Shown: positions 5,504 through 58,029 of the stretch, piece by piece | How positions within the stretch are numbered: the first letter of the stretch is position 1 | How the letters are laid out: every line of letters starts with the position of its first letter | Source: a bacterium | GTDB taxonomy: Bacteria > Patescibacteriota > Minisyncoccia > UBA6257 > WO2-44-18 | DNA: 64,000 nt | Direction of reading: 5' to 3' | Assembly: GCA_030646995.1 (NCBI GenBank) | Contig: JAUSKF010000002.1 | Coordinates: 12,092-76,091, forward strand | Made by a program: the position numbers and the translations under genes | The notes under the pieces: generated by a model | Database searches by the model: none | What the model was told of the DNA's origin: nothing | What the model saw: the letters and a program-made list of their open reading frames with translations, nothing else

Positions 5504-5584
5504 ACCTACTGCTCCAAATTTTCAATTCGAAGAAGCAGAAAATTTGGTTAGCAGTAGCAATCCCGAGCGTAGCGAGGGACTACC
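5504..5584. repeat. Family A two-hairpin intergenic repeat element, copy 1 of 4
   Basis: tacctactgctccaaattttcaattcgaagaagcagaaaatttggttagcagtagcaatcccgagcgtagcgaggga; near-identical copies at 40154, 47258 and 57948. Confidence 0.8.
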
Positions 5585-5825
5585 TACTCTCGATTAGCTT
5601 TAATTTCTTTTCCCTGTTCCATCCCTTTATCTCCATTTCCCTTTTTAATGCCGAGCCGCGAGTTTTACGTTTCTCCGTGTAAAGAATTTTTACAATGCGT
5701 TTTGCTCTTGTGTACTTCGCGCCGATGCCGGCTTTGTGTTCGGCAAAGCGGCGTTTAACATCGGTCGTGATTCCGGTATAAAGACTTTTGTCGGCGCAAA
5801 GCGCCATATATACAAACCAGGTCAT
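5580..5825 (-). CDS. GIY-YIG nuclease family protein (UPF0213-like)
   Basis: VYMALCADKSLYTGITTDVKRRFAEH… matches the GIY-YIG fold signature; 81 aa. Confidence 0.75.
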   Translation of the reverse strand: MTWFVYMALCADKSLYTGITTDVKRRFAEHKAGIGAKYTRAKRIVKILYTEKRKTRGSALKREMEIKGWNREKKLKLIESR

Positions 5826-5858
5826 ATTGAATTAAGCATACCGTAAAAGTAAGATTAT

Positions 5859-6329
5859 ATGATGGATATACGAACACTGGATCAAGGTGACGTCATCGAG
5901 CTCTCTAGACTTGTGGGCGAGGTAGCTAATTATCATCACGAGATAGATCCGGTTTATAAATCTCATAATCAGTATTCCGGTCTGAAAGAAATGGTTGAAG
6001 GCTGGCTGACGGATGCCGACACTTTAGTTTTACTGGCGGAAGAAAATAAGAAATTAATCGGATATATCCGCATCGGAGTAGAGCCGGCGCCGGAGTATTC
6101 TACAGAAAAGAAAATTGGAATGGTCTATGACGCTTTCATTGAAGAAGAAAGCCGGAGGCAGGGGATTGCCGAACTTCTTTTTCAAAGATCGCTGGAGTGG
6201 TTTGCAAAAAAAGGAGTAGAGAACATAGAGCTGAACGTGGACGCCCGCAATAGTGGGGCAATCGAATTTTGGCGCCAGCTAGACTTCGCTGATTATAAAA
6301 TCCGGATGCGCCGCCCCCTCGATCTCTAG
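5859..6329 (+). CDS. GNAT family N-acetyltransferase
   Basis: …IELNVDARNSGAIEFWRQLDF… acetyl-CoA binding motif region; 156 aa. Confidence 0.7.
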   Translation: MMDIRTLDQGDVIELSRLVGEVANYHHEIDPVYKSHNQYSGLKEMVEGWLTDADTLVLLAEENKKLIGYIRIGVEPAPEYSTEKKIGMVYDAFIEEESRRQGIAELLFQRSLEWFAKKGVENIELNVDARNSGAIEFWRQLDFADYKIRMRRPLDL

Positions 6330-6350
6330 GTTTTGATTTTTTTGCATAAC

Positions 6351-6490
6351 CAAAGCGTAGGGAATAGTTTCGAGGAACATGCCGGAGCCCCGACGGCTTG
6401 GTCTTAATAGCCTCGGGGCGAGGGAGAGGCGAAATTGTTCGCTGGAAACAATTTACGCCGTTTCCGAGGGGCTATTCCCGGAGTCCTTGA
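6351..6490. ncRNA. Family B conserved structured element, copy 1 of 2 (unclassified ncRNA or structured repeat)
   Basis: ~95% identical flanks with copy at 34826-34984; internal hairpin differs with compensatory changes (aaattgtt…aacaattt vs aattgagc…gctcaatt). Confidence 0.5.
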
Positions 6491-6547
6491 TTTATAGGTG
6501 ATTTTTTGTTATTTTAATTATCGGCACATACAGAGAAGGAGGAGGCA

Positions 6548-6772
6548 GTGATGGAAAACTTCGAAAAAGAGAATCCCGAAAAGAAGGATCGCTGTGTTGA
6601 TTGTGGTGGCAAGGACGGTGTAGAGAAGCTCTCTGGCAAGACTGTTCCCGCTGGCAGGGAGGTACCGGTTTGTAGGATCTGCAAGGAGTCGCGCGCCGTG
6701 TTCTATCAGAAGAATGAAGTTCCGAAGCCTCTGCCGCAAAATCCCGATGGTCCGAATCGACGCTGTTGTTGA
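6548..6772 (+). CDS. Small zinc-ribbon-like Cys-rich protein
   Basis: Strong RBS GGAGGAGG upstream of ATG; CVDCGG…CRIC…CC motif; 74 aa; terminator follows. Confidence 0.5.
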   Translation: MMENFEKENPEKKDRCVDCGGKDGVEKLSGKTVPAGREVPVCRICKESRAVFYQKNEVPKPLPQNPDGPNRRCC

Positions 6773-10929: not shown

Positions 10930-10968
10930 TATAGTATTTAGGTAAAAAAATCCCCTCAAATTAGGGGA

Positions 10969-11042
10969 TGGGCCCGGAGGGAATCGAACCCTCAACCCGC
11001 AGATTATGAGTCCGCTGCTCTGACCTTTTGAGCTACGGGCCT
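10969..11042 (-). tRNA. tRNA-Met (anticodon CAT; A1·C72 mismatch)
   Basis: Reverse complement folds as a cloverleaf: D-arm tagctcaaaaggtcagagc, anticodon loop ctCATaa, T-arm gagggttcgattccctc, acceptor aggcccg/cgggccc. Confidence 0.8.
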
Positions 11043-11177: not shown

Positions 11178-11210
11178 GTACCAGACTTATAAAAAATAAA
11201 TAGAATGGTA
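11178..11210 (+). promoter_or_regulatory. GTACCAGACTTATA…ATGGTA motif (single copy) overlapping the M23 peptidase start codon
   Basis: gtaccagacttataaaaaataaatagaATGgta; same motif in three tandem copies at 48965-49078. Confidence 0.4.
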
Positions 11211-13700: not shown

Positions 13701-14018
13701 ATGTTCATAAAATTATTTCTGGCTGTGCCGTTTATATTACTGGCGTTTGCCGTTGCTTTATTTTACATTCATTTTGGCGGATCAGGCAATCTGCTGGTGG
13801 TTAGACTAGACAGCGTTCGAGGAATAAATTTTATCAGCCAAGTTGGTGAAGTTTGGGGGACGTTAGCAGTTGTTTTGGCGATCAATGTAGTGAATTTTTT
13901 GCTGACTTTAGGATTGTTAAAAAGAGATAGAAAAATAGCTGTTTTGCTCCCATTTACCAGCACCCTCATCAGCCTGTTGATTTTAATTTATATTTCGGTT
14001 ATAGTATCTGTTAATTAG
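13701..14018 (+). CDS. Small hypothetical membrane protein
   Basis: 3 hydrophobic segments; 105 aa; directly upstream of rplU. Confidence 0.35.
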   Translation: MFIKLFLAVPFILLAFAVALFYIHFGGSGNLLVVRLDSVRGINFISQVGEVWGTLAVVLAINVVNFLLTLGLLKRDRKIAVLLPFTSTLISLLILIYISVIVSVN

Positions 14019-14020: not shown

Positions 14021-14329
14021 ATGTTCGCAGTAATAGAAACCGGAGGAAAGCAATATAAGGTTGCAGCCGGGCAAAAACTTAAGATTGAAAAATTAGAATC
14101 TCCGGTAGGGGATAATTTAGCTTTCGATAAAGTTTTGTTAGTAGCGGACGGTGAGAATGTAAAAATCGGCGCTCCTTATGTTGCGGACGCTAAAGTAGAA
14201 GCGAAAATTCTCCGCCAAGGACACGCTAAAACGGTGATTGTATTTAAATACAGCTCCAAGACCCGTTTCCGTAAGAAGAAGGGCCATCGCCAGAAGTTCA
14301 CTGAAGTAGAGATTACCGGCATTAAATAA
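14021..14329 (+). CDS. rplU: 50S ribosomal protein L21
   Basis: MFAVIETGGKQYKVAAGQKLKIEKL…FKYSSKTRFRKKKGHRQKFTEVEI is the canonical L21 sequence. Confidence 0.9.
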   Translation: MFAVIETGGKQYKVAAGQKLKIEKLESPVGDNLAFDKVLLVADGENVKIGAPYVADAKVEAKILRQGHAKTVIVFKYSSKTRFRKKKGHRQKFTEVEITGIK

Positions 14330-15285: not shown

Positions 15286-15328
15286 TGTAGGATATTTTTA
15301 TTATTTAAATATTTAAACGTTTAAACCT
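15286..15328 (-). promoter_or_regulatory. Conserved TTTAAA-rich palindromic upstream module (copy upstream of recR; overlaps the dnaB stop)
   Basis: Reverse complement reads TTTAAACGTTTAAATATTTAAATAATAAAAATATCCTACAATG; near-identical modules before cysS, groEL and fusA. Confidence 0.55.
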
Positions 15329-16685: not shown

Positions 16686-18065
16686 TTATTTTTTTAGAAT
16701 CAGCGGACCGACTGGTGTGTCGTCTACTATGTATCCTAGCTCTTCCACTTCTTTCCGCAAGACATCAGCAGGAACAAACTGTTGATTATTTCTTAATAAC
16801 ATTCTTTGCTTCACCAGTCCCCGTATTTTAAAGGGAATATGAGGAAATTTCAGCTCAACTCCGAGCGTCTGCAGTCTCGCCAGGAGCCAATCGGCCACCA
16901 TCTCCGCTTCTTTTTGGGACAAGCTCCAGATTTCCGGATTAACGGCGTTCACTACACCAAACAAAGCGGCTAAAGCTTCAGGAGTATTGAAGTCGTCGGC
17001 CATAGCTGCATGAAAAACAGCTTCGGATTTTTTAAGCAGGGCTGCAATGTCCAGTTTGCCGGATTCTTTTTTTCTAACTAGTCGTAATTTTCCGATGAAC
17101 TGGCGTAAATTGGAAATAGAATTTTTTGTCTGCTCAGCTAATTTATCGGAGTAATCGAGAGGGGAGCGATAATGATGGCTGACCACCAGATATCGGAAAA
17201 GGGTGGGGGAGTGGGTTTTTAAAAAGTCGCGGATAGTGATGAAATTTCCCGCGCTCTTCGCCATCTTGGCGCCGTTTACCAAAAGATGCCCAGCATGCAT
17301 CCAAAGTTTCACCATCGGTTTTTTACCGGAAGCCGATTCCTGCTGGGCTATCTCCGCTTCGTGATGAGGAAATTTCAAATCGATACCGCCGCCGTGGATG
17401 TCATATTGCGGGCCGAAGAAATATTCAGTGATTGCCGTATCTTCAATATGCCAGCCGGGCCTTCCGGATCCCAGAGGGGTTTTCCAGCTCGGCTCTCCCT
17501 GCTTCTCGAATTTCCAGAGGCAGAAATCTCCTTTGTTGCGTTTATTTATCGCGTCATCAATTCTGGAAACCGAATCCTCGGCCTGCTCTAGTGTGCGATG
17601 GGATAATTTCCCGTAATCCGGAAATTTTGAAATATCAAAATAATATCCTTCGCTTTCAATCTTATAGGCGACTCCTTTATCAATCAAAGCTTGAATCTGT
17701 TTAACAATTTGCCTGATGTAGCTGGTAGCTTTAGCGTATTTATTGACCGAATCCACTCGCAGCTCCTTCATATCCTGCTTGTAGGCTTTGGTATAAAAAT
17801 TAGCGATTGTTTCCGGATATTTTTTCTCTTCCTTGGCGCGGTTGATTATTTTATCATCAATGTCAGTGATGTTTTGTAAATAAAAAACTTTTATCTTTTG
17901 CGAGCGCAGATAGCGGATTATGGAATCAAAAGCGGCATAAGTACGGCCGTTGCCGATATGCGCCAAGTCGTAAACGGTCGGCCCGCAGACGAACAGCTTT
18001 AATTTACCGCTCTCCGGAATCAGGAGCGGTTTTTTTTCACCGGACAAGGTATCAAAAATTATCAC
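16686..18065 (-). CDS. cysS: Cysteine--tRNA ligase (GTG start)
   Basis: HIGNGRTY (HIGH), KMAKS (KMSKS) and class I anticodon-binding domain; 459 aa. Confidence 0.9.
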   Translation of the reverse strand: MIIFDTLSGEKKPLLIPESGKLKLFVCGPTVYDLAHIGNGRTYAAFDSIIRYLRSQKIKVFYLQNITDIDDKIINRAKEEKKYPETIANFYTKAYKQDMKELRVDSVNKYAKATSYIRQIVKQIQALIDKGVAYKIESEGYYFDISKFPDYGKLSHRTLEQAEDSVSRIDDAINKRNKGDFCLWKFEKQGEPSWKTPLGSGRPGWHIEDTAITEYFFGPQYDIHGGGIDLKFPHHEAEIAQQESASGKKPMVKLWMHAGHLLVNGAKMAKSAGNFITIRDFLKTHSPTLFRYLVVSHHYRSPLDYSDKLAEQTKNSISNLRQFIGKLRLVRKKESGKLDIAALLKKSEAVFHAAMADDFNTPEALAALFGVVNAVNPEIWSLSQKEAEMVADWLLARLQTLGVELKFPHIPFKIRGLVKQRMLLRNNQQFVPADVLRKEVEELGYIVDDTPVGPLILKK

Positions 18066-18098
18066 CCTTTTTATTTAAATATTTAAATTTTTAAACAT
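18066..18098 (-). promoter_or_regulatory. Conserved TTTAAA-rich palindromic upstream module (copy upstream of cysS)
   Basis: Reverse complement reads TGTTTAAAAATTTAAATATTTAAATAAAAAGGGTG(start). Confidence 0.5.
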
Positions 18099-18117
18099 TG
18101 CAATATTGCGCTTCGCG

Positions 18118-21635: not shown

Positions 21636-22088
21636 ATGGCTACTATAGAGGTTCCCCAAGAAGGAGAATTAGAAAAATTAATCAAAGAAAAAGAGGAGTA
21701 CTTGAATGGCTGGAAAAGAGCAAAGGCTGACCTGATAAATTATCAAAAGGATGAATCTGTGCGGGCCCAGGAATTTATGAAGATTGCCAATACGGCCATA
21801 CTCCTTGATTTGATACCAATTTTAGACAGCTTCGATCTCGCAATGGCCGCTTCCCAATCTGATAAAAGCGCCGCGGTAATAAAATCTCAATTTGAGGAAG
21901 TTTTAAAAAGATATGGAGTAGAGAAAATATCTATTGAGCTTGGAAAGCCATTGGATACCAAAAGCCAGGAATCGGTAGGGGAGATGGAATCTAGTCACCC
22001 GCCGGGATCGGTAGCAGAGGAGGTAAGTAAGGGGTATGTAATGAATGGGAGGGTGATTCGTCCGGCAAAGGTTAAGGTCGCAAAATAA
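21636..22088 (+). CDS. grpE: Nucleotide exchange factor GrpE (short form)
   Basis: Coiled-coil N-terminus plus C-terminal beta-domain (…GYVMNGRVIRPAKVKVAK); directly upstream of dnaK; the ATG start implies leaderless mRNA. Confidence 0.8.
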   Translation: MATIEVPQEGELEKLIKEKEEYLNGWKRAKADLINYQKDESVRAQEFMKIANTAILLDLIPILDSFDLAMAASQSDKSAAVIKSQFEEVLKRYGVEKISIELGKPLDTKSQESVGEMESSHPPGSVAEEVSKGYVMNGRVIRPAKVKVAK

Positions 22089-22113
22089 CATTTAAACAAT
22101 TAGATATAAAAAT

Positions 22114-23979
22114 ATGGGGAAAATAATCGGCATAGATTTAGGCACTACCTATTCTGAAATAGCGATTACGGAAGCAGGTATACCGAAAATTCTAGAAAAC
22201 GCGGAAGGTATGCGCACCACGCCTTCAATGGTCGCGGTGAATAAAACTAATGAGCGATTGGCCGGACTTTTGGCTAAGCGGCAGGCGATTACTAACCCAA
22301 AGAACACTATTTTTTCGGTAAAGCGTTTAATCGGCCGGAAATTTAGTGACGCAGAAGTTCAGAACGATAAAAAATGGTTGCCTTATGAAATAAAGGAATC
22401 GGCAACTGGAGGCGTTGAGGTGAAGATGGGTGAAGATTGGTATAAGCCGGAAGAAATTTCCGCTATGGTTTTAGCTAAATTGAAAGCTGACGCTGAAGCA
22501 AAACTGGGAGAAAAAATAGATGGAGCGGTTATTACCGTACCTGCATATTTTGATGACAGCCAACGTCAGGCCACTAAAAACGCCGGTGAAATTGCCGGTT
22601 TTAAAGTAGAAAGAATCCTCAATGAGCCAACTGCGGCGGCGCTTGCGTATGGTTTGAATAAAAAGAAAGACGAAAAGATTGTTGTCTATGATTTTGGTGG
22701 AGGAACTTTTGACGTATCTGTGCTGGAAGTAGGGGAGGATAATGGCCAGATTACTGTAGAAGTTAAGGCCACCGGCGGAGATACCCACCTTGGAGGTGAT
22801 GACTTTGATAAGAGAATTATTGAGTATTTAGTTAATGAATATAAAAAGCTTGAAGGAGTGGATCTTTCTAAAGATGCGCTCGCCATTCAGCGCTTAAAAG
22901 AAGCGGCGGAGCGCGCCAAGCATGAGCTATCGGTATCTTTTGAGACTGAAATAAATTTACCCTACGTTACCTCTGATGCTTCCGGACCGCGTCATTTCCT
23001 GATGAAATTTAGCCGAACCAAACTCGAAGAGTTAGTGAGAGGATTAATTGATACTTCAATTTCAATTCTGGATAAAACCATTAAGGAGGCGGGGTATACT
23101 ACGGCCAATATAAACGAGATAGTGCTGGTTGGCGGCCAGACTAGAATGCCCGCAATGCAGGAGGCAGTGAAAAAGTACTTTGGCCGTGAGCCGCATAAAG
23201 AATTAAATCCTGACGAAGTAGTGGCGCTTGGCGCTGCGGTGCAGGCGGAAAATCTATCTGCGAAAGCTGAAGGCCGGACTTCTGAAGGCTCCGTGAAAGA
23301 CATTCTTTTGCTCGACGTTACACCACTTTCTCTTGGTATTGAAACGCTCGGCGGAGTTTTCACTAAACTTATTGATAAAAACACTACCGTTCCAACCACT
23401 AAAGCGCAGGTATTCTCTACCGCTGCGGATAATCAGCCATCCGTGGAAATTCACGTTTTGCAGGGAGAGCGCGAAATCGCTTCGGGAAATAAAACCTTGG
23501 CCAGATTTATGCTGGATGGAATCCCTCCGGCTCCTCGAGGAACCCCGCAGGTTGAAGTTAGCTTTGACATTGACGCTAATGGAATCGTGAGTGTTTCTGC
23601 AAAAGACAAAGCTAGCGGTAAAACCCAAACTGTTCGTATTGAAGCGAATACCAGCTTATCCAAAGAGGAAATCGAAAAACTGAAGGCGGAGGCGGTGCAA
23701 TATGCCGCTGAAGACCGGCAGAAAAAAGAATTAGCAGAAGCAAAAAATAATGCGGAGCATCTGATTTATGCTTCGGAAAAGGCTCTTAAAGACGGCGGCG
23801 AAAAAGTTCCGGCAGATGTTAAAGAGGCAATCACTAAAAAAATTGAGGCTGTGAAAGCGGTCAAAGATGGGCAGGATGCCGCTATGATCAAAACTGCTTC
23901 CGATGCTCTTTCCGTTGAAATTCAGAAAATCGGTCAGGCAATGTATGGCAACCCGCCTAAAGAACCAGAGGCTAAGTAG
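22114..23979 (+). CDS. dnaK: Molecular chaperone DnaK (Hsp70)
   Basis: [27 protein letters not shown] Hsp70 signatures; 621 aa. Confidence 0.95.
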
Positions 23980-34180: not shown

Positions 34181-34252
34181 GCCCTCGTCGTTCAATGGTT
34201 AGGACGCAAGATTGCGGATCTTGCGATTGTGGTTCGATTCCACACGAGGGCA
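34181..34252 (+). tRNA. tRNA-Arg (anticodon read as GCG; identity tentative)
   Basis: gccctcg-tc-gttcaatggttaggac-g-caaga-ttGCGga-tcttg-cgatt-gtggttcgattccac-acgagggc-a cloverleaf. Confidence 0.7.
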
Positions 34253-34431
34253 CAAAGTTACTCAAATAGTTCTCTCGCATCACCAGAGCTCTTTTTGGCC
34301 AGCGCCAAAAATGCTCTTTTCTCTCGGCGATTTACTCCGACTTAGCGTCGGAGACCGGCTAAATCACCTCCGAGATATGCTGCTCAAAAACTATTCTCGC
34401 TGTTGGGAAAATCAGCGAAGCGAGACCCCTG

Positions 34432-34450
34432 TTCCACACGAGGGCACAAA
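34432..34450 (+). repeat. 19-bp direct repeat of the tRNA-Arg 3' end (att-like duplication)
   Basis: ttccacacgagggcacaaa at 34239-34257 and again at 34432-34450. Confidence 0.7.
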
Positions 34451-34825: not shown

Positions 34826-34984
34826 CAAAGCGCAGGGAATAGTTTCGAGGAACGTGCCGGAGCCCCGACGGCTTGGTCTTATTAGCGTCGGGGCGAGGGA
34901 GAGGCAAATTGAGCCGCAGGCTTGCCCGCCTTAGGCGGGAGCTCAATTATGCCGTTTCCGAGGGGCTATTCCTGGAGCCCTTGA
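34826..34984. ncRNA. Family B conserved structured element, copy 2 of 2
   Basis: Flanks ~95% identical to 6351-6490; central hairpin replaced by a longer hairpin with compensatory pairing. Confidence 0.5.
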
Positions 34985-36122: not shown

Positions 36123-36416
36123 ATGACTAATTTCAAACCGCTCTCAAATCACTTATTTATTGAACCTCTCAATACCGAGAAGGCCACGAAGTCCGGAATT
36201 GTTTTGCCGGAAACTGCCGAGAAAGAAAAGCCGATGGTGGGAATTGTGATAGCGGTCGGTGAAGGAAAACGAAATGAAAAAGGCGATGTTGTGCCGATGG
36301 CGGTAAAAGTCGGCGACAAGGTTTTATTTAAAAAATACGGCCCCGACGAAATTGAAGTAGAGGGGAAAAAATATCTGGTCGGAGAGGAAGATGATGTCCT
36401 CGCGATCCTGGAATAA
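36123..36416 (+). CDS. groES: Co-chaperonin GroES
   Basis: …KPLSNHLFIEPL…GIVLPETAKEKP…GEVVAVG… canonical Hsp10; 97 aa. Confidence 0.9.
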   Translation: MTNFKPLSNHLFIEPLNTEKATKSGIVLPETAEKEKPMVGIVIAVGEGKRNEKGDVVPMAVKVGDKVLFKKYGPDEIEVEGKKYLVGEEDDVLAILE

Positions 36417-36461
36417 TAATATTTAAACGTTTAAATATTTAAATAATAAAAATATTCTACA
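36417..36461 (+). promoter_or_regulatory. Conserved TTTAAA-rich palindromic upstream module (copy upstream of groEL)
   Basis: TATTTAAACGTTTAAATATTTAAATAATAAAAATATTCTACAATG; no CIRCE element seen. Confidence 0.55.
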
Positions 36462-38081
36462 ATGAGTAAACAAATTCTATTCAACGAAAAAGCCCGCGAG
36501 GCGATGAAAAAAGGTATTGATAAGCTGGCTCAAGCTGTCATTGCGACTCTTGGCCCGCGCGGCAAGGCGGTAGTTATTGAAAAGGGCTATGGCGCTCCGC
36601 AGGTTACTTTTGACGGCGTTACTGTTGCCAAAGAAATTGAACTCGAAGATAAATTCGAGAATCTTGGCGCTGATTTAATTAAACAGGCCGCTGATAAAAC
36701 CAATGATGCCGTTGGTGATGGCACCACTACTTCTATTGTATTGGCGCATTCTTTGATTGAAGAGGGCGAAAAGATGCTCAAATCCAAGGACGTAAATGTA
36801 ATTCAGCTCGCCGAAGATTTAAAGAAAGGCGCTCTTATTTTGGCGAAAAATCTTGAAGCTCAAAAAGAACCGGTGAATGATCTGGCGAAATTGGCTGAAG
36901 TTGCTTCACTTTCCGCGAAAGACAAAACCATCGGCGGCTTAATCGCTGAAGTAATTCACAAAGTTGGAAAGGAAGGCGTAGTCACCGTGGAAGATTCAAA
37001 CACCATCAGTAATTCGTATGAAGTAGTGGAGGGTATGCAGTTTGATCGTGGTTTCATCTCGCAATATATGATTACCAACAGCGAGCGGATGGAGTCCTCT
37101 TTGGAAAATCCGTATATTTTGGTTACCGATAAGAAAATTTCCGCCATCGCGGAGATTCTGCCGATTTTGGAAAAGGTGGTGCAAAGCGGAAAAAAGGAAA
37201 TGGTAATTATCGCCGATGATGTGGAAGGCGAGGCTCTGACTACTCTGGTAGTCAACAAACTCCGCGGCGTGTTCACCGTGCTTCCTTTGAAAGCTCCGGG
37301 ATTCGGAGATAGAAAAAAAGAAATGCTTCAGGATATCGCCACAATTACCGGCTCTCAATTTATTTCTGAAGAGCTTGGCAAAAAGCTGGAGGCGGTAGAA
37401 CTGGCCGATCTTGGTACGGCTCATCGGGTTGTGTCTAATAAAGACACCACCACAATCGTGGGCGGAAAAGGCGATAAGAAAAAAATTGAAGAGCGTGTTG
37501 CTCAATTGAAAGCCCAACTGCAAAAAGCGGAGTCCGGTTTTGATAAAGATAAATTACAGGAACGTTTGGGTAAGCTAGCCGGCGGAGTAGCCGTCATTAA
37601 AGTTGGCGCTCCGACCGAATCTGCCCAGAAAGAATTAAAAGATAGAGTTGAAGATGCTGTGGCCGCCACGAAGGCCGCGATGGAAGAAGGGATTGTGCCG
37701 GGAGGTGGAATGGCTTTGTTCTACGCAGGAATGGAATTACGTCATCCGCCAGCTGGCGGAAGCAGTATTGCCAACGATATTTTAATTGCCGCCTCCGAGG
37801 CTCCTATCCGCGCCATTGTGGAAAACTGCGGCCAATCTCCTGATTTTATTTTGAACCAACTTCCGAAGAAAGCGGGCTGGCAGGGTTTTGATGCCAACAA
37901 AGGAAAGATGGGGGATTTAAAGGCCGCCGGCATTGTGGATCCGCTGAAAGTCACCAAGACTGCCTTAATGAACGCCGTTTCCGTTGCCGCAAACTATCTC
38001 ACCATTGGCGCCGCCGTTACCGATATTCCTAAGAAAGAATCTCCAGTCGCCCCGCAGATGGGAGGAATGGGGGAGTACTAG
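36462..38081 (+). CDS. groEL: Chaperonin GroEL
   Basis: …[17 protein letters not shown]…, [10 protein letters not shown]…, C-terminal GGMGG-like tail; 539 aa. Confidence 0.95.
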
Positions 38082-40117: not shown

Positions 40118-40150
40118 AACCGGTACGCCCGCTTGCAAAAGCGGGTTTTT
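40118..40150 (+). terminator. Rho-independent terminator after guaB
   Basis: ccgcttgcaaaagcgg followed by tttttttt. Confidence 0.6.
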
Positions 40151-40153
40151 TTT

Positions 40154-40233
40154 ACCTACTGCTCAAAATTTTCAATTCAAAGAAGTAGAAAATTTTGTGT
40201 GCAGTAGCAATCCTGGGCGTAGCGTAGGATTAT
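40154..40233. repeat. Family A two-hairpin intergenic repeat element, copy 2 of 4
   Basis: tacctactgctcaaaattttcaattcaaagaagtagaaaattttgtgtgcagtagcaatcctgggcgtagcgtaggatta. Confidence 0.8.
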
Positions 40234-40291
40234 CTTGCAAAAAATCAACAGAAGTGTTAATATCTCGCCAGAACCCTAACAGGAAAGGAGA

Positions 40292-40642
40292 GTGCTCATG
40301 GTTCGTATGCACGACGGAGAGATGTATCTGGTATCTGTGGCGCACGGAGGCAGAGGGCATGGCGAAGAAATGTCGATGCTTTGTTTGGCCGACGACTTGG
40401 AGTTCGCGCTGAACACCGCCCGGACGGCCGAAAAGTTCGGCTATGACATTTCGCGCGGTGATGACGGCATCTTCATCTGGAAGTTTAATGTTAACGTTAT
40501 CTACGCAAATCGTTTTCCTATCTTCGAGCGGCGTCTGACTTATAAAAGGGTTTCCGACACGGAAAAATCTTGGGTCGAGCATTGGAACTCCGCCGCCCAC
40601 AAGGCTTTGGTTAAAAATAAGGTGGTCCGATCCCGCAAGTAG
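40292..40642 (+). CDS. Hypothetical protein, moderately GC-elevated gene (start GTG 40292 or ATG 40298)
   Basis: AAAGGAGAG RBS; 116 aa; local GC ~55%; terminator 40650-40680. Confidence 0.45.
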   Translation: MLMVRMHDGEMYLVSVAHGGRGHGEEMSMLCLADDLEFALNTARTAEKFGYDISRGDDGIFIWKFNVNVIYANRFPIFERRLTYKRVSDTEKSWVEHWNSAAHKALVKNKVVRSRK

Positions 40643-46764: not shown

Positions 46765-47223
46765 ATGAAAAAACGTCGTAATTTCTCACTTCCGGACCAG
46801 AACGGAAAAATTCATACCTTAAGCGACTACAAAGGCCAGTGGGTACTGGTGTATTTTTATCCGAAAGATGACACGCCGGGATGCAATGCTGAGGCCTGCG
46901 CGATTCGCGATAACTTTCCGGAATTCCAAAAGCTCGGCATCCGGGTTTTCGGCATCAGCGCCGATCCGGTTAAAAGTCATGCTAAATTTGCGGAAAAATT
47001 TAATCTACCGTTCACTTTAATTTCCGATGAAAAAAGAACCACCATTAAAAGATGGGGTGCTTGGCAGAAAAAAAGAGCGATGGGAAAGACGTATATGGGC
47101 ATCGCACGCATGTCCTTTCTGATTGACCCCGATGGCGATATTGCCATCACCTATGGAGAAGTGACGCCGGAAACTCATGCGCAAGAAGTTTTAGACGATT
47201 TGAAGGAATTATTGAATAAATAA
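46765..47223 (+). CDS. bcp: Thiol peroxidase Bcp/PrxQ (peroxiredoxin)
   Basis: …VLVYFYPKDDTPGCNAEACAIRD… (DxTPGCT active site) and resolving Cys. Confidence 0.85.
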   Translation: MKKRRNFSLPDQNGKIHTLSDYKGQWVLVYFYPKDDTPGCNAEACAIRDNFPEFQKLGIRVFGISADPVKSHAKFAEKFNLPFTLISDEKRTTIKRWGAWQKKRAMGKTYMGIARMSFLIDPDGDIAITYGEVTPETHAQEVLDDLKELLNK

Positions 47224-47224
47224 A

Positions 47225-47252
47225 AACCGCTTCTTATAGGGGCGGTTTTTTT
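47225..47252 (+). terminator. Rho-independent terminator after bcp
   Basis: aaaccgcttcttataggggcggttttttt. Confidence 0.6.
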
Positions 47253-47257
47253 GTTGT

Positions 47258-47354
47258 TACCTACTGCTCAAAATTTTCAATTCAAAGAAGTAGAAAATTT
47301 TGTGTGCAGTAGCAATCCTGAGCCTGCCTGCCGGCAGGCGTAGCGTAGGACTAC
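47258..47354. repeat. Family A two-hairpin intergenic repeat element, copy 3 of 4 (with a 17-bp palindromic insertion)
   Basis: Same element as 40154-40233 but hairpin 2 carries the inserted cctgcctgccggcaggc. Confidence 0.8.
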
Positions 47355-48964: not shown

Positions 48965-49078
48965 GTACCAGACTTATAGAAATTTAATGGGATGGTACGC
49001 GTACCAGACTTATAGAACTAAAGTGGGATGGTACTGCGTGCGTACCAGACTTATAGAAATTTAATAGGATGGTATAAT
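48965..49078 (+). repeat. Three tandem ~34-37-bp direct repeats (GTACCAGACTTATAGAA-N7-GGGATGGTAC) upstream of the copper cluster; the last unit ends in TGGTATAAT
   Basis: Units at 48965-48998, 49001-49034, 49042-49078; a related single unit at 11178-11210. Confidence 0.75.
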
Positions 49079-49589: not shown

Positions 49590-51656
49590 ATGAATTATAC
49601 CTGCCCGATGCATCCGGAGATAAAACGGAGTCAGCCCGGTATTTGCCCGGAATGCGGAATGACCCTAGTACCCGATAAAGAAAAACGGAGTTCGGATAAA
49701 CACGCCGGCCACCGCACTGCGGATTTTTTAAAAAAGTTTTCAATCAGCTTATTATTGACCATTCCGGTTATTTTATATTCCGACATCATCACCAATCTGA
49801 CCGGATTTCGGGCGCCAACTTTCCCTGGCGCCGGTTTTCTGCCGTTGATCTTAAGTTCAATAGTATTTTTTTATTGCGGATGGGTTTTCTTGACGGGCGC
49901 CTGGAGAGAAATAACCGCAAAATTGCCGGGTATGATGACGCTGATAGCCATCGCCACCTCTACCGCCTACCTATACAGCGTTATTTCTGTCTTTCTGAAA
50001 GGAGAAACTCTTTTTTGGGAGTTGACCACGTTAATCACTGTGATGCTTCTGGGTCATTGGCTGGAAATGCGTGCGGTCAGTGGCGCTCAAGGAGCGCTTA
50101 AAGAACTTTCAAAACTACTACCGGACACAGCAGAAATTTTGCGAAACGGCCAGCCGGAAAAAATACCGGTGGGTGATTTGAGAGAATGGGATTTGGTTTT
50201 CGTCCGACCGGGAGGCCGGATTCCGGCTGATGGGATAATTTCTGACGGACAATCACAAGTAAATGAGGCAATGATTACCGGCGAATCAGCGCCCGTTGCA
50301 AAGAAAATCGGCAGTGAAGTGATCGCAGGCACTATCAACGGCGACGGTTCTTTAACTATAAAAATCACCAAAGTAGGAGAAAAAACTTTTTTGTCCGGAA
50401 TAATGCGTCTTGTGTTGGAGGCTCAATCTTCTAAATCCCGTCTTCAAGTTCTTTCTGACAGGGCCGCCTTTTACCTGACGACAGTTGCGGTGGCCGGAGG
50501 AGGGGCAACTTTAATTTCTTGGATTCTTTCCGGGGCGGGAGCGGGTTTCGCGATTGAAAGAATGGTGGCAGTGCTGGTTATTGCTTGCCCTCACGCTCTC
50601 GGACTCGCCGTTCCACTGGTCGCCTCTATATCTACGACACTCGCGGCTCGCAACGGATTTTTAGTGCGTCAACGTTTAGCATTGGAGCAAGCCAGAAATA
50701 TTGACGTGGTTCTTTTTGATAAAACCGGCACGCTGACCAAGGGAGAGTTCGGCGTTACCAATATTTGGCCGGTGGGCTCGGAAAATGAAAAAGAAATTTT
50801 AGAACTGGCCGCTAGTGTGGATGCGCAATCGGAGCATGTTATCTCAAAGGCAATCGTCACAAGAGCGATGGGCGCGGGAACGAAACTAAAAGAAGTAAAA
50901 AACTTTAAACGATTACCCGGCAAGGGCGTGAGCGGAGAAATTGATGGCTCGGAAATAGCAGTCGGCGGGCAGGCAATGCTGGAAAGTTACGATTTAAATA
51001 TTGAAGGCGGCCTAAGAGAAATAACTGAAGCCGAAAGTAAAAAAGGAAAGACTTTAATCTTCTTAATTAAAGATAGAAAACTTTGGGGAATCTTGGCCTT
51101 GGCAGATTTAATACGCGAAGAATCGCGAGAGGCTATTTCGTCTTTGCAAAAATCCGGAGTAAGGGTTGCGATGATTACCGGTGATTCCGAGGGCGTGGCC
51201 GCTTGGGTTGCTGGTGAATTAAACATAAGTGAATATTTTTATAAGGTTTTGCCGGGTGAAAAAGCCGAGAAAGTGAAATTACTGCAATCTAAGGGGCAAA
51301 AAGTGGCGATGATCGGTGACGGCATCAACGACGCGCCGGCTCTTACGCAGGCTGACCTCGGCATCGCAATCGGCGCGGGGACTAACGTTGCAATTGAATC
51401 AGCTGGAATTATTTTAATGAGAAGCGATCCGCGGGATATTATAAAAATCATTAGACTCTCAAAGCTAACTTACTCCAAGATGATCCAAAATCTTTTCTGG
51501 GCGACCGGATATAATGTGGTGGCAATGCCGCTGGCCGCGGGAGTCCTAGTGAGCCAGGGGATTATTCTGGAACCGGCACTGGCGGCCTTACTGATGTCGG
51601 TCAGCACCATAATTGTGGCCTTGAACGCTGTCTTGTTGAAAAGAAGGCGTTTGTAA
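49590..51656 (+). CDS. Heavy-metal (copper) translocating P1B-type ATPase with CPH transmembrane motif
   Basis: N-terminal CPMHPE…CPECGM metal-binding motif, TGES, CPH (…VIACPHALGLAVP…), DKTGTLT, GDGINDAPAL; 688 aa. Confidence 0.9.
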   Translation: MNYTCPMHPEIKRSQPGICPECGMTLVPDKEKRSSDKHAGHRTADFLKKFSISLLLTIPVILYSDIITNLTGFRAPTFPGAGFLPLILSSIVFFYCGWVFLTGAWREITAKLPGMMTLIAIATSTAYLYSVISVFLKGETLFWELTTLITVMLLGHWLEMRAVSGAQGALKELSKLLPDTAEILRNGQPEKIPVGDLREWDLVFVRPGGRIPADGIISDGQSQVNEAMITGESAPVAKKIGSEVIAGTINGDGSLTIKITKVGEKTFLSGIMRLVLEAQSSKSRLQVLSDRAAFYLTTVAVAGGGATLISWILSGAGAGFAIERMVAVLVIACPHALGLAVPLVASISTTLAARNGFLVRQRLALEQARNIDVVLFDKTGTLTKGEFGVTNIWPVGSENEKEILELAASVDAQSEHVISKAIVTRAMGAGTKLKEVKNFKRLPGKGVSGEIDGSEIAVGGQAMLESYDLNIEGGLREITEAESKKGKTLIFLIKDRKLWGILALADLIREESREAISSLQKSGVRVAMITGDSEGVAAWVAGELNISEYFYKVLPGEKAEKVKLLQSKGQKVAMIGDGINDAPALTQADLGIAIGAGTNVAIESAGIILMRSDPRDIIKIIRLSKLTYSKMIQNLFWATGYNVVAMPLAAGVLVSQGIILEPALAALLMSVSTIIVALNAVLLKRRRL

Positions 51657-51670
51657 GCTAACTTACCAAT

Positions 51671-52012
51671 ATGGTTAAAGCGTTCTCAATTTTAATGTTG
51701 CTCGCTATCGGTCTAACCTTGGGGGCCGGTCTTTTTGTTTACGCCTCAGATCATTCGGAAGCTAACGGCCTCTGCCCAATATCCGTGATGTCAAAGGCCG
51801 CCTGCCCAGCCAAGAGCGGCCTTTTGAGCTTATTGTTGGCAATCAGCTTTCTGTTCGCTGTATTTTTTAACAAAAAAATCTTCGCATCATTAAAACCGAA
51901 GAAACAATACTATGGTCACCGGATCACCTTTTCCAGTCTCTATCAATTGAAATTTTCCGATTGGCTGACTTTGCATGAGAAACGCGACCCTTCTTTGTTT
52001 TTAGGGTATTGA
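51671..52012 (+). CDS. Small hypothetical membrane protein with two CP(x) motifs
   Basis: 113 aa; 2 TM; …NGLCPISVMSKAACPAKSG…; terminator 52040-52080. Confidence 0.35.
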   Translation: MVKAFSILMLLAIGLTLGAGLFVYASDHSEANGLCPISVMSKAACPAKSGLLSLLLAISFLFAVFFNKKIFASLKPKKQYYGHRITFSSLYQLKFSDWLTLHEKRDPSLFLGY

Positions 52013-52092
52013 TTTGCGCAGTCTAACTGCGTGTTTAGTATTACAAATCAATGCCCGCTTTAGTCGAGCGGGCATTTTTAACTGAAAGATAA

Positions 52093-52545
52093 ATGGACAA
52101 AAAATCATTCTTACTGGGTCTGAGCGCTATACTGATAGTAGTATCGGCTTTTGCTTTTATGGCGACCCGTTCTTCATCCGGACAAAGCATAACCGTCTAT
52201 AAATCTCCCACTTGTGGGTGCTGCGGAGGATATATCACCTATCTGAAGAAAAACAATTTCCAGGTTACGGTCGTGGAAAAAACAAACCGTACGGAATTAA
52301 GGGAAAAATTCCACATCCCGGCTGATATGGAGAGTTGCCATACTTCCGTTGTGAATAATTATGTTGTCGAAGGGCATGTCCCAGTAGAGGCAATCAATAA
52401 GTTACTGGCGGAAAAGCCCGATATAGACGGCATTACCTTACCGGAAATGCCGGCCGGATCTCCCGGAATGGGCGGCGCAAAATCCGGTCCGTGGACAGTC
52501 TACGCCTTATCGAAAGGCGCAAAATCAGAATTCCTAATTAAATAA
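52093..52545 (+). CDS. DUF411 family metal-binding protein (CopG-like periplasmic copper protein)
   Basis: …VYKSPTCGCCGGYITYLKK…SCHTSVVNNYVVEGHVP…LPEMPAGSPGMGG… matches DUF411 conserved Cys/His/Met blocks. Confidence 0.75.
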   Translation: MDKKSFLLGLSAILIVVSAFAFMATRSSSGQSITVYKSPTCGCCGGYITYLKKNNFQVTVVEKTNRTELREKFHIPADMESCHTSVVNNYVVEGHVPVEAINKLLAEKPDIDGITLPEMPAGSPGMGGAKSGPWTVYALSKGAKSEFLIK

Positions 52546-52547
52546 AT

Positions 52548-53771
52548 ATGGCTTTCCTAACTTTGGTTGAATTCGTTGTTGTGTATCTTTGGGGTTGGTT
52601 AGTCCTGACTATTCTTGCCAGTGTCGGCATTTTCTTGCTAATTAAAAAGTACTATAGAATAGAGATGGCGATTTTTGGTGTGATAGCGGTCGTGGGGCTG
52701 GTGGCGATTTTATTCGGACCCAAAATCTTCCCAAAGGCTTTTGAATACCCCCCATTTCTTACCACCTTCGGACCATCAGACGGTCCGGCTCTGCCGTTCA
52801 AAAGCGCCATTGCTTTCCTGAAAAACTATTCAAAAATGGAAAAGGTGGAGAATATCGCGCGTAATCCAAACGATATTCCTCCACCAATTACCCGCAATTA
52901 TCCTGAAAAGATAAAAATTAATCTGACGACGAAAGAAGTGATATCGGAAATTGCGCCCGGCACCTTCATGAATTACTGGACGTTTAACGGCACGGTTCCG
53001 GGTCCATTTTTACGGGTTCGCGAGGGCGATACGGTGGAATTGACGCTCACCAATGACAAGTCCAGCGTCCACGCGCACAACATAGATCTGCACGCGGTGA
53101 ATGGGCCTGGAGGAGGAGCGGCGCTGACAAATGTTGATCCGGGCGAAACAAAGTCTTTTACTTTCCAAGCTCTAAACCCCGGGTTATATGTATATCACTG
53201 CGCTCATCCCAATGTCGCTACGCATGACACGCATGGTATGTACGGCTTGATTTTAGTTGAACCGATAGGAGGATTAACAAAAGTTGATAAGGAATTTTAT
53301 GTGATGCAGGGCGAGCTTTACACGACGGGCGATATTGGTAAAAAGGGATTGCAAATTTTTGACGCAGTCAAAATGCTGAACGGCAAACCGGAATACATAG
53401 TCTTCAACGGAAAAACTTCAGCGTTAACCACGAACGTCAAAGCGAAGGTGGGGGACCGGGTCCGGTTTTTTGTCGGTAACGGAGGAGTAAATCTGATTTC
53501 TTCCTTCCATGTCATCGGCGAAATTTTCGACACTGTTTATCCAGAGGCTTCAATTGGTGGGGCGTTATTCAAGAATGTTCAGACAACGATAGTGCCGGCT
53601 GGCGGGGCGACAATAACGGAATTTTTGCTCAACGTTCCGGGTAAATATCCTTTCGTGGATCATGCTTTGGCCAGAATTGAGCGCGGCGCCTGGGGAGTTT
53701 TAGATGTAGCGGGCGAAGAAGACGTCAGAATCTTTTCTGGAGATTTTGAAGCAGACGACCATAGTCATTAA
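52548..53771 (+). CDS. nirK: Copper-containing nitrite reductase (NirK)-like two-domain cupredoxin protein with N-terminal membrane extension
   Basis: …HAHNIDLHAVNGPGGGAALTNVDPGETKSFTFQALNPGLYVYHCAHPNVATHDTHGMYGLILVEP… reproduces the type-1/type-2 Cu ligand pattern of NirK. Confidence 0.7.
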   Translation: MAFLTLVEFVVVYLWGWLVLTILASVGIFLLIKKYYRIEMAIFGVIAVVGLVAILFGPKIFPKAFEYPPFLTTFGPSDGPALPFKSAIAFLKNYSKMEKVENIARNPNDIPPPITRNYPEKIKINLTTKEVISEIAPGTFMNYWTFNGTVPGPFLRVREGDTVELTLTNDKSSVHAHNIDLHAVNGPGGGAALTNVDPGETKSFTFQALNPGLYVYHCAHPNVATHDTHGMYGLILVEPIGGLTKVDKEFYVMQGELYTTGDIGKKGLQIFDAVKMLNGKPEYIVFNGKTSALTTNVKAKVGDRVRFFVGNGGVNLISSFHVIGEIFDTVYPEASIGGALFKNVQTTIVPAGGATITEFLLNVPGKYPFVDHALARIERGAWGVLDVAGEEDVRIFSGDFEADDHSH

Positions 53772-57008: not shown

Positions 57009-57030
57009 TTTTTAGGTTAGAATTAACGAG

Positions 57031-57663
57031 ATGAATGATTTTGTAATTTCAGCTTTCCAACTCTTATCCCTAGTATTCTCCGTGATGATTCACGAAGTTT
57101 TACACGGTCTTATGGCACTAAAACTCGGCGATACCACTGCCAAAGATCAGGGGCGGTTGACCTTAAATCCTCTAAAACACATCGATCCCTTTGGCTCTGT
57201 CGTAGTGCCATTAGTGCTCCTCGTGACCGGTAGTCCGATATTGATTGGATGGGCAAAGCCGGTGATGTATAACCCCGCCAATATTAAAAATCCGAAAACC
57301 GGAGACCTGCTAATCAAGTTGGCCGGTCCGGCGAGCAATTTGGCCTTGGCAGTCGTTTTTGGTTTGATTCTACGTCTGCTTTTCCCTTTCGTGAATGTTC
57401 CAATTTTCGGCAGTCTGGTTATTTTTCTAAAAATCATAGTTGCTACTAATGTATCACTCGCTATATTTAATTTGGTTCCTCTGCCGCCGCTGGACGGCTC
57501 AAGTATCTTATTTGCGCTGATCCCGGACAAGTGGCACGCTCTCCAGGAATTTTTGACCAGACACGGCTTTTGGTTGCTTATAATCTTTATTTTCTTCGGT
57601 TTCCAATTAATTCTTCCTATTATAGGCAGCATCTACCTCCTACTGACGGGTCCGGCTGGATAG
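57031..57663 (+). CDS. Site-2 protease family zinc metalloprotease (M50-like)
   Basis: HEVLHG (HExxH) in TM1 and …FNLVPLPPLDG… (LDG motif); 210 aa. Confidence 0.75.
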   Translation: MNDFVISAFQLLSLVFSVMIHEVLHGLMALKLGDTTAKDQGRLTLNPLKHIDPFGSVVVPLVLLVTGSPILIGWAKPVMYNPANIKNPKTGDLLIKLAGPASNLALAVVFGLILRLLFPFVNVPIFGSLVIFLKIIVATNVSLAIFNLVPLPPLDGSSILFALIPDKWHALQEFLTRHGFWLLIIFIFFGFQLILPIIGSIYLLLTGPAG

Positions 57664-57712
57664 TTCTAAAATTTCTGATATAGTTTCGGCAGTTCTTGAT
57701 AAGGAGGACCTT

Positions 57713-57916
57713 ATGCAGCTCGCCGTGAAGATTGTGGGAACCATTTTTATTCTTGGAGTAATTCTCGGCGCCTTGCTCGGCTTCCTATGTATGCACACTA
57801 AGCCCGGCTCCAGACTGCAAAAATGCGCCTCTACATTCGGAAATATCAGCTTAGGAACGGCCGCCTTGAGTATGCTGACGATGCTAGCGCTAGTTGGCTT
57901 GAGCCTTTGGCTTTGA
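57713..57916 (+). CDS. Small hypothetical membrane protein
   Basis: 67 aa, 2 TM; AAGGAGG RBS; terminator 57926-57947. Confidence 0.4.
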   Translation: MQLAVKIVGTIFILGVILGALLGFLCMHTKPGSRLQKCASTFGNISLGTAALSMLTMLALVGLSLWL

Positions 57917-57947
57917 AGATGATTTCCAGCCCCTTTCGGGGCTTTTT

Positions 57948-58029
57948 TACCTGTTGCTTAAAATTTTCAATTCGCAGAAGCCGAAAATTTTTCCAGCAAC
58001 AGCAATCCTGAGCGCAGCGTAGGATTACC
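57948..58029. repeat. Family A two-hairpin intergenic repeat element, copy 4 of 4 (compensatory stem changes)
   Basis: tacctgttgcttaaaattttcaattcgcagaagccgaaaatttttccagcaacagcaatcctgagcgcagcgtaggattacc; ctgttgct/agcaacag replaces ctactgct/agcagtag. Confidence 0.8.

Follow-up and report, generated by a model that had tools for sequence, protein, structure and literature searches.

An 85-base, two-hairpin repeat family of Patescibacteria that behaves like a small parasitic insertion element

The stretch of Patescibacteria DNA analysed here (64 kb, referred to below as the window) carries a real family of ~85-base repeats, each made of two hairpins, which is undescribed and behaves like a small parasitic insertion element rather than like a small-RNA gene. 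On balance it is probably a non-autonomous insertion element, specific in orientation and target, with hairpins that would be recognised in folded single-stranded form, much as in IS200/IS605 or REP elements. Patescibacteria have very small, streamlined genomes, and related copies occurred only in a few of their MAGs, mostly from Hainich groundwater. Pattern scans of genomes and metagenomes, in which most matches were chance fits to the 21-23 specified bases, gave genuine copies only from CAZJFE01, H41-bin011_1 and Hainich groundwater contigs. A scan of viral contigs returned one chance match only, and blastn of the element against phage and plasmid collections returned none. A full-text literature search found no description of interspersed structured repeats (MITE, REP) in Patescibacteria or Saccharibacteria.

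The original prediction had placed four copies in the window, and all four were recovered on the plus strand within a few bases of the predicted positions. The copies and the features that surround them are as follows.

5499-5584, plus strand: copy 1, 110.8 bits with covariance model R1, flanked by the ORF 5094-5498 stop codon and the convergent GIY-YIG gene
5499-5506, plus strand: T-tract and ACC of copy 1
5506-5558, plus strand: hairpin 1 of copy 1
5559-5581, plus strand: hairpin 2 of copy 1
5582-5584, plus strand: terminal ACC of copy 1
5580-5825, minus strand: GIY-YIG nuclease gene, 81 aa (Pfam PF01541, E 2.5e-18)
10941-10969, minus strand: unoccupied terminator with TTTTTTACC, on the C-rich strand
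40127-40146, plus strand: intrinsic terminator of guaB, its T-tract running into copy 2
40149-40234, plus strand: copy 2, 109.5 bits with R1 (hairpin 1 at 40156-40208, hairpin 2 at 40209-40231)
47222-47250, plus strand: intrinsic terminator of bcp, upstream of copy 3
47254-47354, plus strand: copy 3, 94.8 bits with R1, its hairpin 1 identical to that of copy 2
57928-57943, plus strand: intrinsic terminator of ORF 57713-57916 (67 aa), preceding copy 4
57944-58029, plus strand: copy 4, 104.3 bits with R1, of the subfamily with a CTGTTGC/GCAACAG outer stem
58631-58661, plus strand: unoccupied site, a terminator and TTTATTTACC immediately ahead of the rpsL promoter; L021/L025 carry the element at the orthologous position

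Since the next match to R1 in the 64 kb (both strands, filters off) reached only 18.9 bits and was the palindromic hairpin 1 read on the opposite strand, while the four copies scored 94.8-110.8 bits (E 1e-20 to 1e-24), the window holds exactly four copies, far beyond chance, and the same search found no further or degenerate ones in it. They lie 7-35 kb apart with housekeeping genes between them, a density of ~1 per 15-20 kb. The element is 80-86 nt long, AT-rich and non-coding, with two unlike hairpins. The comparative sample is small (10 distinct copies at 8 independent sites in several genomes), and identity among copies ranges over 77-96% with no clustering by genome: copy 1 is 90-91% identical to the copies in L006, L017 and L021, versus 79% to copy 4.

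Hairpin 1 consists of about 20 bp and a 14-nt loop and hairpin 2 of 7 bp, and their sequences are unrelated. The predicted two-hairpin architecture is borne out by the folding of the copies, which gave z = -4.3 to -4.8 as RNA and z = -3.8 to -6.3 as single-stranded DNA, in each case on either strand. Both compensatory changes that had been noticed in the window are present, namely CTGTTGC/GCAACAG in copy 4 versus CTACTGC/GCAGTAG in the others, and ATCCC/GGGA in copy 1 versus ATCCT/AGGA in the others. Across the 10 distinct copies, two-sided changes affect 4 pairs, one of which occurs as three pair types (CG/AU/UA), and 95% of cells hold a pair, compared with 23-46% when the partners are slid by 1-3 columns. 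The joint change of both arms thus supports selection on structure, as first proposed, and such covariation fits RNA and folded single-stranded DNA alike. The hairpin 1 loop, CAATTC-NN-AGAAG-NN-G, is conserved in sequence across genomes, and the hairpin 2 loop of copy 3 carries a 16-nt GC-rich palindromic insertion at about 47324-47339. Neither terminus is an inverted repeat of the other (TACTGC.. on the left, ..GTAGGA(TTACC) on the right); inverted repeats exist only inside each hairpin.

A stable, covarying structure with conserved loops would also suit a family of independently transcribed small-RNA genes, one of the roles offered in the original prediction, which we regard as extremely improbable. 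Each copy begins either at a stop codon or at the T-tract of the terminator before it, so that none has a promoter of its own, and no promoter precedes any window copy. No terminator follows hairpin 2 in any of them, and on the minus strand a usable terminator is found at copy 3 only. Promoters of the downstream genes lie beyond the element. Copies are, moreover, dispensable at orthologous sites. The impression that the repeat belongs to no nameable family holds for Rfam, where no family matches it: the whole window gave tRNAs only at gathering score, and copy 2 gave noise at E<10 (best mir-199, 22 bits versus a threshold of 60).

All four copies had been described as lying directly 3' of an intrinsic terminator, which is true of copies 2, 3 and 4. 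Copy 1 has no terminator hairpin upstream and begins right after the stop codon of ORF 5094-5498. A good intrinsic terminator precedes the element at 6 of the 8 independent sites, and the element is therefore mostly untranscribed. The genes behind copies 2 and 4, earlier called GC-elevated, are not so (GC 0.516 and 0.534, versus 0.519 for guaB and 0.522 for the DEAD helicase).

The junction of the element is fixed. T(4-8)ACC starts all 10 distinct copies and TTAC(C) precedes every one, while TTACC or CTACC ends 7/10, giving a general right end of (T/C)TAC(C). TTACC flanks both sides in 7/10 copies and occurs once in the empty rpsL site, an arrangement that a 5-bp duplication fits as well as a target motif combined with an identical element end. 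Every copy is a singleton in sense orientation relative to the upstream gene, with no inverted pairs. The TTAC-bearing strand is the G-rich strand at 8/8 independent sites, which would make it the lagging-strand template, although this bias is confounded with gene orientation.

Presence and absence were compared at five orthologous sites in relatives of about 70-80% nucleotide identity. The clearest case is the site upstream of rpsL, where the alignment of the window with L021/L025 has a clean gap of 82 columns between aligned flanks, the indel containing nothing but the element; the empty site of the window keeps TTTACC within TTTATTTACC. The copy 3 site between bcp and the DEAD helicase gene is filled in the window and empty in L025 (3797-4231), and so is the copy 4 site in the M50-X intergenic region (empty in L025, 15569-15806). 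Conversely, the site at a small membrane ORF after a tRNA is filled in L016/L019/L002 and empty in the window. The convergent pair of ORF 5094 and the GIY-YIG gene has the element in the window and in L001/L042 and lacks it in L029, L030 and L041. Owing to additional genes or to divergence, three of the five empty sites are unclean at the nucleotide level, and no TTACC is seen at the empty counterparts of copies 1 and 3. The window genome and that of Hainich H51 (L016/L019/L021/L025) share none of their comparable sites, although their copies are 81-90% identical. A poly-A-tailed retroposon read from the minus strand was rejected, as the A/T tract is already there in the empty site.

Two insertions have rewritten the 3' ends of genes. 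As predicted, copy 1 abuts the stop codon of the GIY-YIG gene: the CTA at 5580-5582 of this minus-strand gene falls inside the element, and the last codon and stop (AGG TAG) come from the right end of copy 1. In a comparison of this site in the window, L001/L042, L029, L030 and L041, the resulting C-terminus (..SR*) was seen only in the two element-bearing genomes, and in the window and L001 the element truncates the nuclease. In L016 the final codons and stop of the membrane ORF have given way to the element, which lies upstream of that gene's terminator. These insertions look accidental rather than designed. Of the roles first considered, the miniature mobile element is thus the one favoured, given the five filled and empty sites, the fixed 5' junction, subfamilies common to different genomes and the two damaged gene ends.

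Alternatively, the element could be a cis-acting structure selected by the host, which stops or processes read-through transcripts or protects 3' ends and so insulates neighbouring transcription units in a compact genome; both hairpins would then lie past terminators or in the gaps between convergent genes. Hairpin 1, with its about 20 bp, would be a plausible RNase III substrate, and the spread of copies would then be secondary. The consistent sense orientation to the upstream gene would be expected under such a role, as would the covarying stems and the loop sequence kept across genomes, and in L016 the element lies inside the transcript. Copy 1 separates two convergent genes that otherwise lack a terminator and is found at the same site in two genomes ~27% apart in nucleotide sequence, a retention that could reflect selection. 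However, the good terminator at 6/8 sites would leave little transcript on which the element could act, 32 of the 37 terminators predicted in the window lack it, every comparable site differs in presence between the window and Hainich H51 with no sign of replacement, and two insertions damaged gene ends. Overall, host selection appears rather unlikely. The REP/BIME-like mRNA stabiliser put forward earlier is right as to the general kind, that of a hairpin repeat with covarying stems; the defining features of REP are lacking, and stabilisation is unlikely because 6/8 sites lie past the terminator and thus outside the upstream mRNA.

At several polymorphic sites the genomes differ in a small lineage-specific gene as well, which would fit a site-specific recombination site (attC- or att-like) bounding small gene cassettes, the folded hairpin being the substrate of a tyrosine or serine recombinase that shuttles such neighbouring genes. 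ORF 57713 accompanies copy 4, a 106-aa gene stands in place of copy 3 in L025, the hypothetical genes at 40292-40642 and 58121-58624 each have their own terminator, and the element lies upstream of gene X in the window and downstream of it in L025. TTACC on either side would resemble an att core. L017 and L020 share 97.6% of their left flank and diverge from mid-element on, which would look like a switch of flanks; this observation was set aside as evidence of recombination, as it lies 41-140 nt from contig ends, where assemblers misjoin repeats. On the other hand, the element lacks RYYYAAC/GTTRRRY core sites, its copies form no array, and no integrase was found in the window or in neighbouring loci. 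Housekeeping genes flank it and the clean rpsL indel contains the element alone, so that a recombination site is distinctly improbable.

For the favoured insertion element, the steps can be sketched as follows. A selfish structured repeat family, specific to a narrow clade of Patescibacteria, would always insert the same way round, just 3' of a T-tract and ACC (TTAC|C), a motif that compact genomes would offer chiefly at the 3' borders of intrinsic terminators. The two hairpins would be the recognition features, the stems by virtue of their compensatory changes and the hairpin 1 loop by its sequence. A trans-acting enzyme encoded elsewhere in the genome would bind them in single-stranded, folded DNA, following the logic of IS200/IS605 'peel-and-paste' and of REP/RAYT, and the small size of the element would make a single-strand circle a plausible intermediate. 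We infer that the host draws no function from it. Among about 60 window ORFs, Pfam revealed no transposase, integrase or HUH domain, and the annotation of about 60 kb from element-bearing relatives lists no mobilising enzyme. A RAYT (Y1 HUH) gene was found neither among those ORFs nor at the annotated neighbouring loci, and no longer, autonomous element with matching ends was seen.

Patescibacteria commonly encode several copies of small stand-alone GIY-YIG nucleases of about 80 aa. Hairpin 2 adjoins the 3' end of such a gene in the window and in L001. L026, an unrelated locus, has another GIY-YIG gene with inverted hairpin-2-like units on both sides, three in tandem upstream and one 4 nt past its stop codon; L026 excepted, no stand-alone hairpin 2 units were found in the window or 8 loci. 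Perhaps hairpin 2 is a cognate site of these ~80-aa nucleases, which would then mobilise the element in a REP/RAYT-like partnership that may rest on a GIY-YIG nuclease in place of a Y1 transposase. Such a partnership is very improbable. Neither the element nor hairpin 2 was present at six other GIY-YIG loci, so that a general association with GIY-YIG genes was rejected and the link may be coincidence, and a literature search on GIY-YIG together with RAYT found nothing relevant. A further stand-alone hairpin 2 unit was observed inside a Dus gene in L031.

Compared with known systems, the element comes closest in its junction to IS200/IS605 elements and PATEs of the IS608 type. IS608 inserts 3' of TTAC, which remains behind once the donor is sealed, with a preference for the lagging-strand template (PMC5027513). 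The present element likewise always lies 3' of a fixed tetra- or pentanucleotide, the same TTAC as in IS608 (PMC5027513), keeps the motif at an empty site (TTTACC at rpsL), as members of this group do, and has subterminal hairpins, no terminal inverted repeats and copies in a single strand orientation, which would be that of the lagging-strand template. Unlike the similar palindromes of that group, its two hairpins resemble each other in neither sequence nor size, its right end repeats the target motif and no Y1 TnpA was found in the DNA examined, which comprised 64 kb of the 162-kb source contig and about 190 kb of relatives. Its TTAC lies flush against hairpin 1 and shares bases with the 3' arm of hairpin 2, whereas IS608 has cleavage sites 19 and 10 nt from the hairpins and guide tetranucleotides. 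With REP/BIME and REPIN-RAYT systems it shares extragenic hairpin repeats at gene 3' ends, compensatory stems and mosaic hairpin modules, and hairpin 2 occurs alone in the relatives L026 and L031, as REP units do. REP, however, is a 20-40-nt palindrome after GT[AG]G, as opposed to 80-86 nt with two different hairpins here. The element's GTAG, in the 3' arm of hairpin 1, is not conserved (ACAG in copy 4 and L001), copy number is low, inverted pairs or clusters never occur and no RAYT was found.

Like MITEs (Correia, ERIC, RUP, bcr1, Rickettsia palindromic elements), the family is short, non-coding, AT-rich, intergenic and polymorphic between relatives, and it occasionally inserts into gene ends as Rickettsia palindromic elements do, but outer terminal inverted repeats are lacking, and the strictly single orientation and fixed 5' junction motif also set it apart from classical MITEs. 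Group IIC introns similarly insert just after intrinsic terminators in sense orientation, yet at 85 nt the element has no 5' GUGYG, domain V/VI, reverse transcriptase or Rfam group II match. Integron attC sites differ by their R''/R' core sites (RYYYAAC ... GTTRRRY), cassette array and IntI, none of which is present at the element. The element therefore fails the strict definitions of REP, MITE, IS608-type element, attC and group IIC intron; on present evidence it opens no new category of system.

Since the element rewrites gene 3' ends and adds a strong stem-loop behind terminators, a side effect on expression is possible. It offers a lead to a hairpin-recognising enzyme acting in Patescibacteria and, turning over faster than genomes diverge, a strain-level marker of genome dynamics in groundwater populations. 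It is also a recurrent source of contig breaks in assemblies of groundwater Patescibacteria: two independent Logan unitigs of run SRR13727527 end within the element, as assemblers do at repeats.

The four copies of the element in the window, as read and aligned, keep one layout: after a T-tract with ACC come a long hairpin (H1) and, one C further on, a short hairpin (H2), with A(C/T)C at the end. The outer stem of H1, CTACTGC/GCAGTAG, is followed by an asymmetric 1x3 internal loop, a 10-bp inner stem, (C/A)AAATTTTC/GAAAATTT(G/T), and a 14-nt tip, CAATTC-NN-AGAAG-NN-G, in which three extra pairs are possible. H2 reads AATCC(T/C)G...(A/G)GGA(T/C)T. The copies, located by sequence and covariance model, are:

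5499-5584, plus strand, copy 1
40149-40234, plus strand, copy 2
47254-47354, plus strand, copy 3
57944-58029, plus strand, copy 4

In an unfiltered search of the entire window, a covariance model based on 10 distinct copies scored these four, all on the plus strand, at 95-111 bits. It recovered no further copy in the window; all other matches reached at most 19 bits, and these are the palindromic H1 read backwards. Copy 3 carries a 16-nt insertion in its H2 loop (47324-47339), a GC-rich palindrome in itself. The 12-nt core of this insertion, CCTGCCGGCAGG, recurs once in the window, within a UvrC-like gene (29017-29028), against 0.12 matches expected from shuffles.

Compensatory stem changes between copies, as originally described, are borne out by the alignment. 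Over the 10 distinct copies, 95% of stem cells form standard pairs, a share that drops to 23-46% once the partners are shifted by 1-3 columns. Four stem pairs are altered on both sides, and one H1 pair occurs as C-G, A-U and U-A. A standard pair with a one-sided change was seen at 0 of 24 stem pairs in any copy, and uncompensated changes are outright mismatches only, at six pairs. The variable H1 tip positions coincide exactly with predicted loop and internal-loop bases, which together with the covariation indicates that pairing is under constraint. Folding is about equal on both strands (z of -2.4 to -5.8 with RNA parameters and -3.8 to -6.3 with DNA parameters), and covariation and folding distinguish neither RNA from DNA nor one strand from the other. 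The structure itself is all that speaks for a family of small-RNA genes, one of the roles first proposed. There is no space for a promoter before any copy or for a terminator behind it, and the promoters of downstream genes lie beyond the element (TTGACT-17-TAAATT after copy 4, TTGACA-18-TATACT at an empty site upstream of rpsL), so that independent small-RNA genes are very unlikely. Stabilization of the upstream mRNA, also suggested originally, is unlikely since most copies lie behind a terminator.

The most informative evidence is presence or absence of the element at five orthologous sites. Upstream of rpsL, the window has a terminator, TTTATTTACC and the promoter without an element, while a Hainich relative has a terminator, TTTTTTTACC, the element and the promoter; the two align on both flanks around one clean 82-column gap. 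Copy 3 lies in the window between bcp and the DEAD helicase gene; there the relative lacks the element and has an extra 106-aa gene in its place. Between the M50 peptidase gene and gene X, the window contains copy 4, preceded by a 67-aa ORF with its terminator; the relative has none of the three. A small membrane protein gene beside a tRNA has the element at its 3' side in three other loci (L016, L019, L002) and not in the window; there the element lies within the 3' end of the ORF, upstream of its terminator, replacing the last codons and providing a new stop. The fifth site, between the convergent ORF5094 and GIY-YIG genes, is filled in the window and in the CAZJFE01 genome. In L029, L030 and L041 these two genes overlap with no element between them, and L040 and L028 show other arrangements. 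An end in ..SR* is confined to the GIY-YIG proteins of the two filled genomes, with the Arg codon and stop coming from the CTACC end of the element; in relatives the tails are longer and variable. The window genome shares none of the comparable sites with the Hainich H51 genome, yet their copies are 81-90% identical. Fast site turnover together with a conserved element sequence would be expected of a mobile family that is active or was so recently.

The sequence T(4-8)ACC precedes 10 of 10 copies, and 7 of 10 end in TTACC or CTACC. The empty rpsL site retains T-tract-ACC, which makes the motif part of the target or a remnant of excision rather than an element-borne tail. The original observation of a terminator before every copy stands in part: a canonical terminator hairpin lies just before the T-tract at 6 of 8 independent sites, but copy 1 begins directly after the stop codon of ORF 5094-5498. 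As the sites without such a hairpin (copy 1 with its CAZJFE01 counterpart L001, and L016) still have T-tract-ACC, the association is best read as one with this motif, which terminators supply in intergenic DNA. Among 37 predicted terminators in the window, five have a T-tract followed by ACC; three are occupied, and the terminator census gives two as empty:

58631, plus strand, empty terminator with ACC
10969, minus strand, empty terminator with ACC

A T-tract is followed by AC at 10 of the 37 (ACC at five, ACG at three, ACT at two), about three times the chance number, itself a rough estimate; this could reflect an overlap with -35-like boxes, or sites that the element targets or has left as footprints. 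Structures selected by the host behind terminators, for example as a read-through block or RNase III site, would account for the sense orientation and for copy 1 having been retained. Site turnover, the lack of the element at 32 of 37 terminators and the damage done to genes by insertions are difficult to reconcile with such structures, and this explanation is unlikely.

A mechanism is suggested by likeness to known systems. IS608, of the IS200/IS605 family, is a single-strand 'peel-and-paste' element (PMC5027513). With that family, as described for IS608, and with REP elements, the element shares insertion 3' of TTAC, an empty site that keeps the motif, lack of terminal inverted repeats, subterminal hairpins whose stems covary, restriction to one strand and a length too short to form a double-stranded circle. 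Its geometry is not that of IS608: H1 and H2 are dissimilar, and TTAC lies directly against them. From these shared features we think that the element moves, or moved, as folded single-stranded DNA, with the enzyme supplied in trans. The ~60 window ORFs and the annotated neighbouring loci of relatives yielded no transposase, integrase or HUH domain. At 8 of 8 sites the TTAC-bearing strand is the G-rich strand, which is the lagging-strand template; genes are mostly co-oriented with replication, and this bias is thus inseparable from co-orientation with the upstream gene.

Two Hainich contigs, L017 (42-132) and L020/L008 (140-230), have the left flank of the element in common (97.6% over 210 nt), diverge from mid-element on and have unrelated right flanks, either through recombination between copies or because the assembler joined sequences at a repeat close to contig ends. 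The shared left flank, and lineage-specific small genes adjoining several copies, would fit a recombination site or cassette boundary. The element has no core sites, no recombinase was found in the window or neighbouring loci, and the switch falls at contig ends; such a role is quite improbable.

A scan for the H1 tip pattern in one genome per species (596 Gb) and a metagenome collection gave real genome matches from two MAGs only, CAZJFE01 (labelled Saccharibacteria) and H41-bin011_1 ('Patescibacteria group bacterium'). More copies lie on Hainich groundwater contigs, one of which (274 kb) is ~80% identical to the window across rpsL-tuf; the remaining matches are chance. Phage and plasmid collections gave no match. 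Density in element-bearing DNA is ~1 per 15-20 kb (4/64 kb, 1/21 kb, 1/20 kb and 1/13 kb). Within copies 1 and 3, two Logan unitigs from the population of the window break off, as assemblers usually do at repeats. Subfamilies do not follow genome boundaries: copy 1 has 90-91% identity with L006, L017 and L021 and 79% with copy 4, whose outer stem is common to L001. Genes after copies 2 and 4 had been described as GC-elevated, which their GC (0.516 and 0.534) against guaB (0.519) and the helicase gene (0.522) contradicts. The repeat is real and its family seems to be undescribed: no Rfam family matches the element, and literature searches on Patescibacteria/Saccharibacteria gave no description of such repeats. 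It is best classed with small structured non-autonomous repeats (REP/PATE/MITE-like), distinctive in its unlike hairpins, a T-tract-ACC target that leads to placement behind terminators, strict strandedness and a narrow Patescibacteria clade.

H2 also occurs without H1, in L026 (a different Patescibacteria MAG) and L031. In L026, three tandem H2-like units (13915-14013) lie upstream of a small GIY-YIG gene and one inverted unit (14284-14316) lies 4 nt beyond its stop; relative to the gene, this placement matches that of H2 in copy 1, which follows the GIY-YIG gene of the window. In L031, a unit at 1830-1863 is in frame inside a Dus gene and appears to add ~11 codons. RAYT genes are flanked by their REPs, which the GIY-YIG gene with its flanking units recalls. 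Six other GIY-YIG loci have no H2-like hairpins; a partnership argued from this analogy is very doubtful and may be coincidence.

Other repeats occur in the window. A GC-rich repeat of ~140 nt, with an internal hairpin GCCCCGACGG...CCTCGGGGC and no Rfam match, has two copies (6351-6490 and 34826-34984) alike in two blocks at 94% and 92% identity, one after a GNAT gene and the other in a variable region after the tRNA at 34181. The 3' end of this tRNA (34181-34252), TTCCACACGAGGGCACAAA (34231-34257), recurs ~190 nt downstream (34428-34450) like an att remnant, and the following 1.5 kb (to 35964) are GC-rich (0.527) and not alignable with L016. AT-rich leaders of 8-nt periodic TTTAAA(C/T)(A/G) units (15290-15326, 18051-18104, 22084-22133, 36408-36464, 59647-59704) stand directly upstream of highly expressed genes (a 539-aa gene at 36462, EF-G at 59694, a gene at 22114, and dnaB); over 50 nt, those at 36415 and 59647 share 88% identity. 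A 33-nt unit, GTACCAGACTTATAGAAATTTAATGGGATGGTA, occurs three times in tandem at a spacing of 36-41 nt (48965-49074) upstream of a cluster of ORF163, copper ATPase, DUF411 and NirK genes, and a fourth time (11178-11210) upstream of an M23 peptidase gene; these units have no Rfam match and look like operator or leader repeats. The cluster of copper P-type ATPase, DUF411 protein and copper-containing nitrite reductase NirK (49590-53771) is syntenic in L025, L026 and L027, and its NirK is 89% identical to that of a Patescibacteria MAG.
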